From a virus (lineage: Duplodnaviria > Heunggongvirae > Uroviricota > Caudoviricetes): a DNA stretch of 4,597 nucleotides. The stretch's first letter is position 1. Every line of letters begins with the position of its first letter. Made by a program: the position numbers and the translations under genes. Below, piece after piece: positions 453 to 4,597 of the stretch. The notes under the pieces are model-generated. The model did no database searches. It worked only from the letters and a program-made list of their open reading frames with translations, and was not told the origin of the DNA. Where the stretch lies: IMG/VR virus record IMGVR_UViG_2734482566_000007. One strand, given 5' to 3'.

Positions 453-740
453 TCAATCCTGCTCAAGATTGTAGATGAGTTTATTCTTCAGCAAAAGCAG
501 AAAACCAGCCTTAAAACCAATCTCTTTCAAAACCCGTAATGATGTGACAAATTCGTCCTCACGCAAAATAAAACCGTCCGTCAGAAGTCCATTACAAAAA
601 TAAAATAACACAGCACCGCTCTTCCTTTGTTGAGATTGCAAACATCTAATGCGGCAATGGCTGACAATCGCTCCATTCTCAACGCGCACAGCATAGAGGC
701 CATTTTCACTAAAAATTTCACGCAATTCTTCGATTTTCAT
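453..740 (-). CDS. Hypothetical small phage protein, 95 aa, no recognisable domain
   Basis: ATG at 740-738 preceded by GGAAGGA 8 nt upstream; stop TGA 455-453. Sits directly downstream of a sigma70-like promoter at 822-849. No motif I can assign. Confidence 0.6.
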   Translation of the reverse strand: MKIEELREIFSENGLYAVRVENGAIVSHCRIRCLQSQQRKSGAVLFYFCNGLLTDGFILREDEFVTSLRVLKEIGFKAGFLLLLKNKLIYNLEQD

Positions 741-989: not shown

Positions 990-1145
990 TTACTTCCTGG
1001 ATTCGTAGTCTACGAAGACAGCGACCTCCGTCTGGCCGGTTCGGATTCGTACCTCACAGAGGTCTTTCCTCGTTACCAGTGCCGTCACTATGACGGTTAA
1101 ACAGATGACGATCAGGGCGATTAACATCGCCTTTTGCTGCTTCAT
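990..1145 (-). CDS. hok: Hok/Gef family type I toxin, 51 aa (MKQQKAMLIALIVICLTVIVTALVTRKDLCEVRIRTGQTEVAVFVDYESRK); closest in my recollection to HokD/RelF
   Basis: ATG at 1145-1143 with AGGAG 9 nt upstream; stop TAA 992-990. Single transmembrane helix followed by the conserved RK.LCE.R....EVA..Y Hok signature. The 70-aa ORF in the track is an in-frame upstream extension and is unlikely to be the real start. Confidence 0.85.
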   Translation of the reverse strand: MKQQKAMLIALIVICLTVIVTALVTRKDLCEVRIRTGQTEVAVFVDYESRK

Positions 1146-1321
1146 AGCCTGCTTCTCCTTGCCTTTCGGCATGTAAGAGGCTAACCTACATGTGCAAAGC
1201 ATGAAATTGGCCTCAGATTAATGTTAAGCGTCTTGCCGGACGCGTAATGTTAACTGGGGCTTTTCTCTATCTGCCTTTTGGTGTTCATGCCTGAAGCAGA
1301 TAGCCTCAAGCACCCGCAGTC

Positions 1322-1372: not shown

Positions 1373-2059
1373 TCACTCCTTCTCTTCTTTACCGTAGTGG
1401 AGTTGACCAATTTTGATAAGAGGGCGTCCCTGAGATTTGCGGTGTAGATTGGTATCGCGCAGAGAATACACACAGCCACAATATTCCTGCTGATAGAATT
1501 TTTCGCGCTTGCTGATTTCAATCATACGGGACGAGCCGCCCTGCTTGCGCCAGTTATAATCCCAGTACACCATGCCCGGATAATGCGCGACGGCTCGCCG
1601 CCCACAGTCGTTAACCTGCTGCATATTTTTCCAGCGTGAAATGCCCAGTGAACTGCTGATCACACTGAAACCATTTTCAGCGGCGTACAGCGCTGTCCGC
1701 TCAAAACGCATGTCAAAACACATGGTGCAACGGATCCCTCGTTCGGGCTCCCATTCCATTCCTTTGGCTCGTTCAAACCAGTTGTCTGTGTCGTAATCAG
1801 CATCAATAAACGGCACGCCGTGTTGTTCAGCAAAGCGAATATTCTCATCCTTACGAATTAAATACTCTTTCTGAGGATGAATGTTCGGGTTGTAGAAAAA
1901 GATGGTGTAGTCGATTCCCGAGGCCTGAAGCGCCTCCATCACCTCACCGGAACATGGAGCACAGCAAGAGTGCAGTAGTAGTTTGTTTGCCCCGTTTGGG
2001 AGCTCCAATTTGGGCCGTTTGAAATCAGCAACTGTCATAAATATGTTTATTGGGGTCAT
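1373..2059 (-). CDS. queH: Epoxyqueuosine reductase QueH (DUF208 family), 228 aa (221 aa if translation starts at Met8)
   Basis: N-terminal [12 protein letters not shown] cysteine motif and C-terminal EYCGCVYS motif are characteristic of DUF208/QueH. ATG at 2059-2057, stop TGA 1375-1373. No clear Shine-Dalgarno before either candidate start. Confidence 0.75.
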
Positions 2060-2179
2060 AAAAATATCAAAGAGTGTAGCATTAGAACGGGGCTATCGGA
2101 AACAGATGTGTGACTGCTCCCCGCCCTTTCGGGTGGTCTCCTGATGATTTGAGGGTGCAGAAATCCCTCCGGTTAAGGA

Positions 2180-2206
2180 TTAAATTTTTAACAGTGCTAA
2201 ATTTAA
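2180..2206 (-). promoter_or_regulatory. AT-rich dyad TTAAATTT-N11-AAATTTAA immediately downstream of the 2207..2620 stop; candidate operator or promoter element in the 147-bp intergenic region upstream of queH
   Basis: Plus 2180-2187 is the reverse complement of 2199-2206. It is AT-only, so a weak hairpin. Function is inferred only. Confidence 0.25.
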
Positions 2207-2620
2207 TTATTCAGTTCTGGATTTTGTCGCCCTGCGTATCCGCGCTTTCGCGTTACGCTCAATCTGTATCAGCTTTTCTATATTTCTCCGCCTTTCCTGT
2301 TCCTCCTGGCGCAATAGCCTTACATCATCTGCCAGTCTGGTTTCTCTTTTTGCCACAGAGAGCATCCAGTCAAACGGCTCCACAACCGCACCGCAGATTT
2401 TACAGCGGACCTGACGCTCTTTTTCGTCAACCCGTACAGAGGCGTGATGGCAATATGGTCTTTCCGATGGCTCATAAAGAAAATTAACCTGATTACGAGG
2501 GTCATCCTCTTTTACCGGAAATAAAACGATATTGCTTAACTCATCTTCTGGTTTTATTTCCATGCTCCTCTCCTTTGATGCGAATGCCAGCGGTAATTGA
2601 AGCCTGATAGCTAATTTCAT
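2207..2620 (-). CDS. Hypothetical Zn-ribbon-like protein with a basic coiled-coil C-terminus, 137 aa (118 aa if translation starts at the internal ATG at 2563)
   Basis: ATG 2620-2618 directly abuts the TGA (2623-2621) of the upstream gene, suggesting translational coupling; AGGAGG lies 11 nt upstream. The internal ATG at 2563 has a stronger SD (aaAGGAGAGGAGcATG). Putative metal ligands in ...PYCHHASVRVDEKERQVRCKICG...; C-terminus is Arg/Glu-rich. Confidence 0.6.
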   Translation of the reverse strand: MKLAIRLQLPLAFASKERSMEIKPEDELSNIVLFPVKEDDPRNQVNFLYEPSERPYCHHASVRVDEKERQVRCKICGAVVEPFDWMLSVAKRETRLADDVRLLRQEEQERRRNIEKLIQIERNAKARIRRATKSRTE

Positions 2621-3043
2621 TCACAGTATCGCCTCCTGAAAATTACCCTGATAGAAAGCCAGTACACGCTGCATAGCTTCGCTCTTCCGGCACTCGCGAC
2701 AGATTATATTCAGGCGCCTGTCGTAGCGGCGTATTTCTCCGTCAGGTAATGACCAGATAAGGTCCGGATCAACAACAACCGGTTTCCTCACCTTTACTCT
2801 CGAGAGTTTTTTGCGGGCGCTTTGCCAGTCCTTGCGAGCCTGTTCAGACGGGAATAAGCCGTAGCCAGAATTATATACATCACCACTTGCGACCAGTTCT
2901 ATGCATAAGCGACCGACAGACGCACGACTGATACCTGTTTCATCTGACAACTGCCGAATCGTGACCCGACCGTCCTGATGCACGAGTTCCACAATTCGCG
3001 TCTTCAGTTCTTCCCGCTGTTCGGGAGTAAAAGGTTTCGCCAT
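2621..3043 (-). CDS. Ren-like winged-HTH protein, 140 aa (resembles lambda Ren in the HTH and C-terminal ...RECRKSEAMQRVLAFY... segments, with an internal insertion of about 45 aa)
   Basis: ATG 3043-3041 with AGGAGG about 6 nt upstream; stop TGA 2623-2621. Lies immediately downstream of the DnaC-like gene, the same position as ren after P in lambda. HTH segment VTIRQLSDETGISRASVGRL. The Ren assignment is from a recalled sequence and needs a search to confirm. Confidence 0.65.
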   Translation of the reverse strand: MAKPFTPEQREELKTRIVELVHQDGRVTIRQLSDETGISRASVGRLCIELVASGDVYNSGYGLFPSEQARKDWQSARKKLSRVKVRKPVVVDPDLIWSLPDGEIRRYDRRLNIICRECRKSEAMQRVLAFYQGNFQEAIL

Positions 3044-3057
3044 AAATCCTCCTGAAA

Positions 3058-3819
3058 CTACTTAACAACCCTCGAATGGCTAACATTCGGACGCCAGCTC
3101 TCCCAGTTAAAATTCACCCAGCGCCCGCCGTTCATGACCATGCGATCCATCACCCGCTCGCCGAGCAATGTTTTCATCACCTCATAGTTCAGGTGATGAA
3201 AACATTGCTCGGCGAGCGGGTGATGGATCGCATGGTCATGAACGGCGGGCGCTGGGTGAATTTTAACNNNNNNNNNNNNNNNNNNNNNNNNNNNNNNNNN
3301 NNNNNNNNNNNNNNNNNNNNNNNNNNNNNNNNNNNNNNNNNNNNNNNNNNNNNNNNNNNNNNNNNNNNNNNNNNNNNNNNNNNNNNNNNNNNNNNNNNNN
3401 NNNNNNNNNNNNNNNNNNNNNNNNNNNNNNNNNNNNNNNNNNNNNNNNNNNNNNNNGATAGCTGCCGCTAAGTGATTCTTCCCGGTACCAGGTTTTCCGC
3501 TGAACGCAAAATTTGTACACCCGGTCATCAGTTCATCGGCGATGGATTTCGCCTGGCTTAACGCGTATCGCTGGCCGTCGTTCTGCACCTGGTAATTCGC
3601 AAACGAGCATTTACGGTGCAACGGCTGGATGCCTGAGCGATTCAGAATTTTTTCCACCCGCAACTGGCGATTCAGGCGGTTGATCTCCTCGCTACGTTTC
3701 TGGCCTTCAGCAAGTTGCCACTCGCGCCACTCCGCTACCGTTCTGAATGGGGCGGTTACATGTGGCGGGGTCAGTCGGCGGATGCGTTCCAGAACGCCGC
3801 CTGTCGCAATATTTTTCAT
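3058..3819 (-). CDS. DnaC-like replicative helicase loader (AAA+ ATPase), coding sequence interrupted by an assembly gap and a fold-back artifact
   Basis: ATG 3819-3817. N-terminal part closely resembles E. coli DnaC / prophage YdaV-type proteins, including Walker A FSGKPGTGKNHLAAAI; genuine C-terminus ...NYEVMKTLLGERVMDRMVMNGGRWVNFNWESWRPNV... Residues between are N-masked (3268-3456) or come from an inverted duplicate (3191-3267). Confidence 0.85.
   Translation of the reverse strand: MKNIATGGVLERIRRLTPPHVTAPFRTVAEWREWQLAEGQKRSEEINRLNRQLRVEKILNRSGIQPLHRKCSFANYQVQNDGQRYALSQAKSIADELMTGCTNFAFSGKPGTGKNHLAAAIXXXXXXXXXXXXXXXXXXXXXXXXXXXXXXXXXXXXXXXXXXXXXXXXXXXXXXXXXXXXXXXVKIHPAPAVHDHAIHHPLAEQCFHHLNYEVMKTLLGERVMDRMVMNGGRWVNFNWESWRPNVSHSRVVK
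3106..3267. repeat. Perfect 77-bp inverted duplication (arms 3106-3182 and 3191-3267, 8-bp spacer) ending exactly at the N gap; probable fold-back assembly artifact
   Basis: The reverse complement of 3191-3267 is identical to 3106-3182. The left arm encodes the conserved DnaC C-terminus; the right arm gives non-homologous residues (VKIHPAPAVHDHAIHHPLAEQCFHHL) where the AAA+ core should be. Confidence 0.8.
3268..3456. other. Assembly or scaffold gap, 189 N
   Basis: Run of N. Gap plus artifact arm totals 266 nt, close to the roughly 260 nt expected for the missing DnaC-like core, so the reading frame is fortuitously preserved. Confidence 0.95.
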
Positions 3820-4174
3820 GGTCCGTTACCCCCTGAAGCCTGGCGGGATCGCACTGTCCGGCAACGAGACGGTGTTAACCTGTCGGAGCAACGTCTCAGG
3901 CCGAACACCTTTCGGCGCGAACAGGCCCTGGTATTCATTGGCGATGCTGTGTCGAATCACCTGCTCAGGTGTAAAACCCTGCTGACGGAATTTTTCCAGT
4001 TCCCGTATCGCCCCGTTAGCGCCCTGCTCCGTTCGAATCGGTTTTCGCAATGCCTGTCTGAACCGGACCCACTCATGCCAGAGTGTTTCCGGCAACCAAT
4101 CGGGCAGCTCAATAGCCTCCGGCTCGAATTTTTTAGACGCTCGTTTTTGGCGAGGGGGAGATCAGTATTTAGAT

Positions 4175-4194
4175 CTTCCTCTTCCTCTTCCTCT
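4175..4194. repeat. (CTTCCT)3 hexamer tandem repeat encoding the poly-Glu linker of the replication initiator
   Basis: Plus 4175-4192 is three exact CTTCCT units plus CT, translating on the minus strand as (GAG GAA)3. Confidence 0.8.
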
Positions 4195-4217
4195 GGTAAC
4201 GCTTTTTGATCCGTTTG

Positions 4218-4238
4218 TGTAACGCTGGCAGCGTTACC
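4218..4238. repeat. Dyad element A: TGTAACGC-TGGCA-GCGTTACC inside the initiator gene
   Basis: 8-bp arms are exact reverse complements. Near-identical to element C at 4425-4445. Confidence 0.6.
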
Positions 4239-4263
4239 TTTTCGTTTCAGTTCGCGTATTTTT

Positions 4264-4283
4264 GTTACTCGCTCGTTTGTAAC
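4264..4283. repeat. Dyad element B: GTTAC-N10-GTAAC inside the initiator gene, flanked by T-rich tracts
   Basis: Same GTAAC/GTTAC core as elements A and C, in the opposite arm order. Confidence 0.45.
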
Positions 4284-4424
4284 CGCCCGTTTTTTAGAGC
4301 TTTTTCCGTTATGACGTTCAAAGTTAGGTAGAGAAAGCCCTCCGTCATTTTCGACCAGCCATCCAACCTGAATTAACGCATCAGCAAAACCAGACATAAA
4401 AGTGATGCGATCTATTGCACTTTT

Positions 4425-4445
4425 TGTAACGCCGCGAGCGTTACA
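4425..4445. repeat. Dyad element C: TGTAACGC-CGCGA-GCGTTACA inside the initiator gene
   Basis: 8-bp arms are exact reverse complements. Shares the TGTAACGC...GCGTTAC consensus with element A about 207 bp away. Confidence 0.6.
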
Positions 4446-4597
4446 ATCTGCATTACCGTCTATCATTTGTTGATCCGCCCATGCCCAGAAGCGAATAACC
4501 TGAGGTAGCCTGAGTTTAACGGACACTCCTTCCTGAAATAGAATGGCATCAGAAGGAGCTAATAATGAGCAGAAAAACCCAACGTTACTCTAAAGAG

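Follow-up and report, generated by a model that had tools for sequence, protein, structure and literature searches.

Introduction

In phage lambda, the helicase-loader gene P of the rightward early operon is directly followed by ren, which encodes a protein of 96 amino acids (aa). Ren is said, from the genetic work of Toothman and Herskowitz of 1980, to protect against Rex exclusion, ren mutants being Rex-sensitive. Such protection is reportedly known for Ren alone. Here, we analyze a comparable locus in a stretch of 4,597 nucleotides of IMG/VR virus record IMGVR_UViG_2734482566_000007 (Caudoviricetes), hereafter named the window. On its minus strand, a DnaC-like helicase-loader gene is followed by a gene for a 140-aa protein assigned to the Ren-like DUF977 family, and then by a second gene, hereafter named gene 2, for a small protein with a predicted zinc ribbon and a coiled coil. 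An earlier note on this DNA had proposed that both form a translationally coupled, anti-exclusion or defense-related pair. Our analysis indicates instead that they are probably independent neighboring cassettes of their respective families, lying in a mosaic accessory region.

The 140-aa protein is best compared with DUF977, or LygF, of Rac-type phages such as Rac-SA53. The match is full-length, the place after the replication genes is the same and nothing substantive differs. With lambda Ren, the window protein shares the position directly after the helicase-loader gene, an N-terminal winged helix-turn-helix (HTH), the C-terminal motif (I/V)xx(R/K)ECRxSxAMxRVLAxY and membership of PHROG 142. 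On the other hand, it is longer, and its C-terminal motif contains a CxxC that is not present in Ren.

Gene 2 is comparable to PHROG 1621, which includes L0139 of phage 933W. Both proteins carry, from the N-terminus, NI(I/V)xx, C-x-H, CxxC and (D/E)PF, and their coiled coils terminate in E(R/K)NxKAR(I/L)R; hok/sok lies downstream of both genes. However, identity is only 27%, and the settings differ: L0139 follows an Ea22-like gene in the early-left region, and the window gene follows DUF977 in the early-right region. Among general folds, the TFIIB zinc ribbon (PF08271) is the best, though weak, match in sequence and fold, with two predicted β hairpins and four putative metal ligands. Unlike in TFIIB, the first knuckle of the window protein is C-x-H and not CxxC, and a long coiled coil follows in place of cyclin folds. 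DksA/TraR proteins (lambda Orf73, 933W L0141) are also small phage early proteins of exo-xis-type regions that combine a zinc site and a long helix. In the window protein, however, the predicted zinc site precedes the helix, and there is neither a DxxDxA tip, nor a C4 site, nor a Pfam match. A DksA/TraR-like reading was therefore rejected, because domain order and ligands differ.

Results

Distribution of the two genes

Co-occurrence was surveyed in the 80 best IMG/VR loci. They contain 83 gene-2 copies, all of Escherichia type and 97–100% identical at the aa level. In 29 of the 83 copies, the DUF977 gene is found 0.6–3.2 kb further upstream, and in 11 it is absent from the fetched upstream sequence. 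The DUF977 alleles located beside gene 2 in E. coli are 55–100% identical, while gene 2 remains 97–100% identical. Hence, a nearly invariant gene 2 stands beside a variable DUF977 gene, which places a recombination joint between them and gives no sign of co-variation. When all 118 gene-2 copies of the fetched loci are considered, the upstream neighbor is DUF977 in 47 and Ea22-like in 34, to which one divergent Ea22-like singleton is added. NinG (9), YbcO (7), RusA (4) and others (16) occupy the same place in the remaining copies.

Outside Escherichia and Salmonella, a DUF977/Ren hidden Markov model (HMM) found no significant match in the fetched flanks of gene-2 loci. The exceptions to the overall negative are a match in Salmonella, 2.2 kb away, and a weak one in Phytobacter (E 4.8e-4), about 0.5 kb upstream. 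Gene 2 is thus present without a DUF977/Ren-like gene in the fetched flanks of Klebsiella, Serratia, Erwinia, Yersinia and other genera, as well as in phages ArgO145 and 933W. Conversely, gene 2 is missing from phages Rac-SA53 and HannyBb, both of which have DUF977. In the phage collection, DUF977 was identified in 25 records and gene 2 in 22, but both in only 4. Phage vB_EcoS-640R1 (ON470612) has the two genes side by side. DUF977 is also much commoner than gene 2 in complete E. coli genomes (at least 3617, or two thirds, against 1679, or 31%, of 5426), and no fewer than half of the DUF977 copies in E. coli are without gene 2. The pairing is local to Escherichia/Shigella. The dedicated pair proposed in the earlier note does not agree with this distribution. 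Its defense-related character finds no counterpart in PADLOC-DB 2.0 either, where the defense models gave no match for the 118- or 137-aa form of the gene-2 protein and weak HTH-level matches only (E at least 0.0017) for the DUF977 protein.

Three E. coli proteins (P0040, P0042, P0060) join the N-terminal 72–85 residues of the zinc-ribbon protein to a C-terminal DUF977 part. These natural "fusions" were considered as evidence of interaction and rejected, since they are rare chimeric recombinants in the reverse of the gene order. They are probably pseudogenes produced by recombination between prophage copies.

Start site of gene 2

The minus-strand open reading frame (ORF) at 2207–2620 encodes 137 aa and, as the earlier note had observed, its ATG abuts the TGA of the DUF977 ORF (TGAATG). 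The conserved start of gene 2 is, however, Met20 of this ORF, at window position 2563, which yields a protein of 118 aa. Several lines of evidence converge on this start. PGAP annotates a coding sequence (CDS) of 357 nt, corresponding to the 118-aa form, in L001, an E. coli chromosome that is 99.7% identical to this part of the window. The alignment with the PHROG 1621 profile begins at residue 20 (residues 20–136 of the long ORF on profile positions 1–120 of 134, 5.1e-56). Homologues of Kluyvera, Klebsiella, Salmonella, Serratia, Erwinia, Yersinia and others all begin at the Met20 equivalent. The 19-codon extension is absent from every distant homologue, and the extensions given by gene callers in E. 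coli vary with the context (P0009, P0023).

In addition, Met20 has its own strong Shine-Dalgarno (SD) sequence, AAGGAGAGGAG, and is located 57 nt past the DUF977 stop. A block of about 30 nt containing this SD, GCTGGCATTCGCATCAAAGGAGAGGAGCATG, precedes gene 2 in DUF977, Ea22-like and other contexts. In the fetched DUF977-adjacent loci, the codon abutting the DUF977 stop is ATG in 21, GTG in about 26 and GTA, a non-start codon, in 7. In all non-DUF977 contexts, the abutting upstream start is missing. Conserved translational coupling is therefore unsupported, because of the 57-nt spacer, the separate SD and the lack of conservation of the upstream start codon.

Architecture and family of the 118-aa protein

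Comparison with 41 alleles gave for gene 2 a ratio of nonsynonymous to synonymous substitution rates (dN/dS) of 0.038 at dS 0.16. Gene 2 is thus a real gene under strong purifying selection. In the AlphaFold2 (AF2) model (mean predicted local distance difference test, pLDDT, 76), a disordered N-terminus is followed by two β hairpins at 43–46/51–54 and by a single helix spanning residues 63–117, with pLDDT values of 93–95 for residues 81–110. The predicted ligands follow the pattern Cys-x-His...Cys-x-x-Cys (C57, H59, C73 and C76 in the 137-aa numbering). C54 and C57 do not vary among 56 distant relatives (22–50% identity), and at least 90% of these keep C38, H40, R50, L98 and R108. The putative metal site seen in the earlier note therefore stands, except for its second histidine (H58 in the 137-aa numbering), which is not conserved. 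The family also shares an N-terminal [N][VI][VI]xFP motif, VDExxR, (D/E)PFD and a C-terminal L(K/I)(R/Q)xERNxKARIR.

The hydrophobic periodicity of the helix peaks at 3.5 residues, as in coiled coils, which agrees with the charged coiled-coil tail described previously. Its heptad core consists of L77, V81, L84, (E88), R/L91, I95, L98, (E102), A105, I109 and A112. The helix ends in a conserved stretch of polar and basic residues (ERNAKARIR), comprising E102, N104, K106, R108 and R110. In 50 Enterobacterales sequences, L84, E87, E88, R91, R92, K97, L98, E102, N104, R108, I109 and R110 are invariant and, overall, the segment LRxEExxRRxNIEKLIQIERNAKARIR is essentially invariant within this order. 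A bZIP-like (basic leucine zipper) reading of ERNAKARIR was rejected, since its basic part follows the zipper on the C-terminal side and the signature is absent; the N..A spacing is a loose analogy. A β-clamp-binding or SSB-tail (single-stranded DNA-binding protein) reading of NVVxFP was also dropped, as it shows no convincing match to the consensus sequences QL[SD]LF or DDDIPF.

The TFIIB zinc ribbon PF08271 scores 21.1 bits in the window protein, below the cut-off of 29, and is weakly matched in 7 of the 56 relatives. Foldseek places the model near 1pft at E 0.26. No Pfam, NCBIfam or PADLOC family was found for the 118-aa protein and its 56 distant relatives, the matches being limited to sub-threshold zinc-ribbon and coiled-coil (DivIC, ZapB) ones. 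The protein thus stands outside named families, as previously proposed. By profile match, it nevertheless belongs to a large family that is catalogued (PHROG 1621) but uncharacterized. This family comprises 148 homologous clusters, or 1625 by profile search (50% identity clusters, E up to 1e-3). L0139 of 933W is assigned to it (phrog_1621, 7.5e-60; E 1e-12 against the window protein), and copies of L0139 occur in VT2-Sakai and many Shiga toxin (Stx) phages. A literature search on the PHROG 1621 family, L0139 included, returned no functional study and no mention of L0139.

Genomic slots of gene 2

Across divergence, the most persistent neighbor of gene 2 is the Ea22-like gene. In ArgO145, the Ea22-like CDS overlaps gene 2 by 23 nt, so that the conserved leader coincides with the 3′ end of that CDS. 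In 933W, L0140 (Ead_Ea22 and DUF551) overlaps L0139. Rare in-frame fusions of Ea22-like sequences to the gene-2 family were also identified (P0002, P0242, P0043). In many loci, DUF977 is followed by an Ea22-like gene and then by gene 2, with gaps of about 730 nt. The DUF977–gene 2 junction of the window may accordingly be a remnant left after loss of an intervening Ea22-like gene.

Other slots are occupied as well. In Stx phages, gene 2 recurs beside Ea22-like genes, with Q or hok/sok immediately downstream. Prophages of Klebsiella and Serratia have it in the nin region, where it overlaps the stop of a resolvase/nuclease gene just before YlcG and Q. A related subfamily is found between an MT-A70 methyltransferase gene and RusA. 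Of the very distant members, one precedes the terminase large subunit gene and one lies among methyltransferase and glycosyltransferase genes, most contigs being too short to tell. In IMG/VR loci L043, L054 and L088, two copies of the gene are present 1.3–1.7 kb apart, each with the same 30-nt leader, consistent with cassette duplication through the Ea22-like region.

The DUF977 protein

The 140-aa protein matches Pfam DUF977 (PF06163) over the whole profile (1–134 of 134) with 116.5 bits, for a cut-off of 22.1, and 1.1e-33. PHROG 142, "Ren-like exclusion protein", is matched by both this protein (2.7e-44) and lambda Ren (1.6e-41). Lambda Ren gave no match to Pfam DUF977 even at E 1. On the other hand, an HMM made from 44 distinct DUF977 sequences of the fetched loci reaches Ren at E 3.7e-7, with Ren 6–49 on the winged helix and Ren 58–92 on the C-terminal segment. 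BLASTP against the C-terminus of Ren gives 60% identity over 20 aa (E 3e-7). The gene starts 14 nt after ydaV, as ren follows P in lambda. Both the position and the likeness to Ren in the HTH and C-terminal segment reported in the earlier note are thereby borne out.

AF2 predicts helices at residues 7–24, 29–36 and 40–53 and a wing at 57–63 (pLDDT above 90 for 11–70), a poorly defined region at 85–112 and small C-terminal helices. The layout hence comprises a winged helix (7–82), a basic linker of low confidence (85–112) and the Ren-like motif at 112–131 (NIICRECRKSEAMQRVLAFY). The excess in length over Ren had been described as a single insertion of about 45 aa; it divides into about 35 internal residues (helix 4 and the basic linker) and about 10 N-terminal residues. 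With Foldseek, the top matches are winged helices of GntR, IclR, MarR and ArsR type; for GntR, IclR, MarR and CadC, probabilities are 0.99–1.0, but E values reach only about 5e-3 to 3e-2. The Pfam models HTH_24 and HTH_IclR score higher than their cut-offs.

The DUF977 gene has a dN/dS of 0.22 and, like gene 2, is a real gene whose matches go far past chance level. In 37 close relatives, almost all variation is concentrated at residues ~30–50, which correspond to HTH helices 2 and 3. At least three distinct alleles of these helices exist, for example SDETGISRASVGRLCIEL, EAKTGATRYLMSVLAREL and EVKTGATRYQISVLAREL, while the remainder is almost invariant. When the gene is searched against E. coli with megablast, most matches cover the 3′ 280 nt only, and the helix 2–3 allele of the window is rarer, since 87 of 5426 genomes match at least 80% of the gene. 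Such alleles on a constant scaffold suggest swapped binding specificities. The 140-aa protein is 74–77% identical to LygF of isolated E. coli phages. Identical proteins exist in RefSeq for DUF977 (WP_001118169.1) and for its neighbor (WP_001343130.1). Overall, the profile matches make the 140-aa protein an ordinary member of the already catalogued, Ren-family winged-helix DUF977. A literature search on DUF977, LygF and Ren-like proteins found no functional study, "LygF" designating only fish lysozymes or a name in the Salmonella Sdf region.

An identification of DUF977 with YdaW (b1361) of E. coli K-12 was rejected, because YdaW consists of an HTH and DUF1627 (PF07789, 3.6e-34). BLASTP of YdaW against the 140-aa protein gives E 0.054, in the HTH region only. 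The inducible phage Rac-SA53 has ydaU, ydaV, "ydaW" (DUF1627) and lygF (DUF977), in this order. A preprint lists YdaW among blockers of RcaT, the toxin of retron-Sen2. As K-12 YdaW is unrelated beyond the HTH, this result does not transfer to the DUF977 protein.

Discussion

We consider it probable that the DUF977 gene and gene 2 are independent neighboring cassettes of the families described above, carried in a mosaic accessory region. Both would be delayed-early accessory genes, read from the minus strand downstream of the replication genes as part of the rightward early transcript. DUF977 would act like Ren and enable the phage to evade exclusion or abortive infection, by means of a winged-helix interaction, the specificity of which would vary with the allele. 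Gene 2 would be an autonomous cassette, made of the ~30-nt leader and the ORF and translated from its own ribosome-binding site. It would recombine among several slots of temperate phages, after DUF977, after or overlapping Ead/Ea22-like genes, and after NinG, RusA or YbcO before Q. The 118-aa protein may form a coiled-coil dimer, in which the zinc ribbon and the basic end of the helix would contact either nucleic acid or a conserved protein of the host or the phage during early development, with the N-terminal peptide as a putative docking motif. DUF977 would not be its obligate partner. That the helix hardly varies between genera points to a conserved target, and the variety of genomic slots argues for autonomous function.

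Several points weigh against this view of two independent cassettes and the roles that it assigns. In Foldseek searches of PDB and BFVD, the 118-aa model had no match with an E value under 0.2, and a sequence-profile search of PDB with the 118-aa family retrieved keratin and G-β coiled coils only. The AF2 model is that of a monomer and is silent on oligomers. A nucleic-acid or adaptor mechanism is possible but doubtful. For DUF977, an anti-exclusion role appears most likely, but is deduced from remote homology to one genetically defined protein, Ren. Furthermore, among the 83 Escherichia-type copies, DUF977 is directly upstream of gene 2 in 43, and the order DUF977, zero to three genes, gene 2 is found in 72, so that some local functional linkage may exist in Escherichia. 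Finally, the window allele has a GGAGG 11 nt before the upstream ATG, and a minor 137-aa product could be made from it.

The earlier note had gone further and read the locus as a translationally coupled two-gene module directed against Rex-type exclusion or another defense. Beyond the adjacency and order in Escherichia, this has in its favor the genuine homology to Ren, the stop codon abutting the ATG in the window and the common strand; a promoter and terminator scan of positions 1900–3150 found no minus-strand sites, and none between the DUF977 gene and gene 2. The module is nevertheless highly improbable, in view of the conserved start 57 nt downstream with its own SD, the GTG or GTA found elsewhere at the upstream position, the occurrence of each gene without the other, the invariance of gene 2 beside DUF977 alleles of 55% identity and the PADLOC result. 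It is likewise very unlikely that the 137-aa form is the real product of the window allele, made by termination–reinitiation at TGAATG, with an extension of 19 residues that matters. The sequence is identical in 21 fetched loci and gene callers often give versions of 132–137 aa, in addition to the abutting ATG and its GGAGG. However, the extension is absent or different in other contexts and in every distant homologue, several DUF977-adjacent loci have GTA at the start, and the PHROG profile and PGAP begin at Met20, after a strong SD.

Alternatively, the zinc-ribbon protein could be tied to Ead/Ea22-like proteins, as a partner or a detachable C-terminal module joined through coiled coils, and take part in the lysis–lysogeny decision. 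Ea22 has been reported to favor lysogeny and to form a tetrameric coiled coil (PMC7093339, PMC8614690). The Ea22-like neighbor in 34 of the 118 copies, the 23-nt overlap, the leader shared with the Ea22-like CDS, the persistence of the neighborhood in the 27%-identical 933W pair L0140/L0139, the in-frame fusions and the many loci ordered DUF977, Ea22-like, gene 2 all agree with such a tie. We regard it as unlikely, because Klebsiella, Serratia, Erwinia and others have gene 2 after NinG, RusA or YbcO with no Ea22-like neighbor, because the fusions are single-member clusters that may be frameshift errors, and because Ea22-like genes are recombination-prone mosaic modules, adjacency to which may only mark a hotspot. 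The nin-region loci point to yet another role, that of a small DNA-binding accessory of recombination or late-switch genes. In lambda, NinH is a small DNA-binding protein encoded in the slot between the junction resolvase and Q. In 20 non-Escherichia loci, NinG, YbcO or RusA is upstream of gene 2 (4-nt overlap) and YlcG and the Q antiterminator come after it, and the helix end is invariant and basic. This NinH-like role appears quite unlikely, since gene 2 also resides in early-left (exo-xis-like) regions and, in a distant phage, before terminase, since the nin genes are of diverse kinds and overlap extensively, so that little can be read from position, and since no similarity to any DNA-binding family is detectable. 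A broader proposal would make the 118-aa protein a representative of an undescribed class of early regulators or counter-defense proteins of temperate phages. A zinc-ribbon-capped coiled-coil dimer, with ERNxKARIR as a basic "reader" and the N-terminal peptide for docking, would work with modular upstream partners (Ren-like DUF977 where the prophage is of Rac type, and Ea22-like proteins in Stx phages) and set the lysis–lysogeny outcome or neutralize abortive infection. This is a long shot.

The reading of the earlier note would have meant a new two-protein anti-exclusion module. The evidence rather leaves two genes that are probably unrelated, the Ren-like one being a routine member of a known family. 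Modest value lies in the uncharacterized, strongly constrained gene-2 family, which includes L0139 of 933W. This family is a reasonable subject for a small functional study because it has a clear architecture, one extremely conserved helix and a recurring position near Ea22, Q and hok/sok. The corrected start codon and the distinction between K-12 YdaW and DUF977 also prevent a false inference from the retron-blocker screen.

Prophage setting

The gene order, entirely on the minus strand, is that of the early-right region of a Rac-type lambdoid prophage (Table 1). Two E. coli chromosomes are 99.7% identical to window positions 2100–3100, one of them being L001, for which RefSeq annotation is available. 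Around this region, L001 carries YdaT, Cro/CI-type regulators, lysis genes and several insertion sequence (IS) elements.

Table 1. Coordinates of the features of the window, in minus-strand gene order
Feature	Positions	Strand	Remarks
Replication initiator (ydaU-like)	3826–4526	-	First in the early-right order
DnaC-like helicase-loader gene ydaV	3058–3819	-	RefSeq "ydaV: ATP-binding protein" in L001
DUF977 ("LygF") gene, 140 aa	2621–3043	-	Pfam PF06163, PHROG 142
Spacer of 57 nt, from DUF977 stop to the real gene-2 start	2564–2620	-	Holds non-conserved ATG 2618–2620 and SD 2565–2575
Gene 2, 118-aa zinc-ribbon/coiled-coil protein	2207–2563	-	PHROG 1621, PGAP CDS 357 nt
Predicted zinc-ribbon core, residues 36–62	2378–2458	-	Ligands C38, H40, C54, C57; flanked by VDExxR and (D/E)PFD
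Single long helix, residues 63–117	2213–2377	-	AF2; pLDDT 93–95 for 81–110
QueH (epoxyqueuosine reductase) cargo gene	1373–2038	-	Pfam PF02677 1.9e-65; PGAP CDS in L001
sok antisense RNA region	1140–1315	- (given jointly with hokD, 990..1315)	Rfam RF01794 sok, 117 bits
hokD toxin gene	990–1145	-	Pfam HOK_GEF 9.8e-23; RefSeq hokD
95-aa hypothetical protein	453–740	-	PHROG 340 (unknown function), no Pfam match; RefSeq hypothetical; between hokD and DUF1367
DUF1367 gene, start only			After the 95-aa gene in minus-strand order

QueH and hok/sok follow the two genes, in agreement with the earlier description. Of 116 fetched copies of the zinc-ribbon gene, only 14 are followed by QueH, which is thus a variable moron. 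On the other hand, hok/sok is a recurrent neighbor of the accessory region, since it is also downstream of L0139 in 933W (hokW/sokW) and of DUF977 in HannyBb.

The prophage copy of the window is a defective, decaying Rac-type lambdoid prophage of Escherichia/Shigella. It is called defective because the replication gene is frameshifted as compared to L001 and cut at ~4500 by the end of a multi-copy IS. The replication-initiator gene is split into two overlapping ORFs (3957–4526 and 3826–4095). Relative to L001, 10 nt are missing (AGGGGGATTT, near 4159) and an extra TCTTCC is present in a Glu-rich repeat around 4170–4195. Together, these differences amount to -4 nt and shift the frame, and the gene is therefore probably a pseudogene. 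The last 101 bases (~4497–4597) depart from the prophage and match a multi-copy "transposase" element, of which a single E. coli genome can have as many as 43 copies. On the plus strand, these bases include the start of an ORF (MSRKTQRYSKE), and we take them to be the left end of an IS3-family (IS600-like) element. Through this IS end, the replication gene is truncated at its 5′ side, a situation that would be in keeping with a Shigella-like host rich in IS elements.

In ydaV, a perfect inverted repeat of 77 nt (3106–3182 and 3191–3267) abuts a run of 189 N (3268–3456). In a genome of 99.7% identity, the uninterrupted ydaV measures 747 nt. The repeat and the N-run look like a fold-back or scaffolding artefact of the assembly and not like biology.

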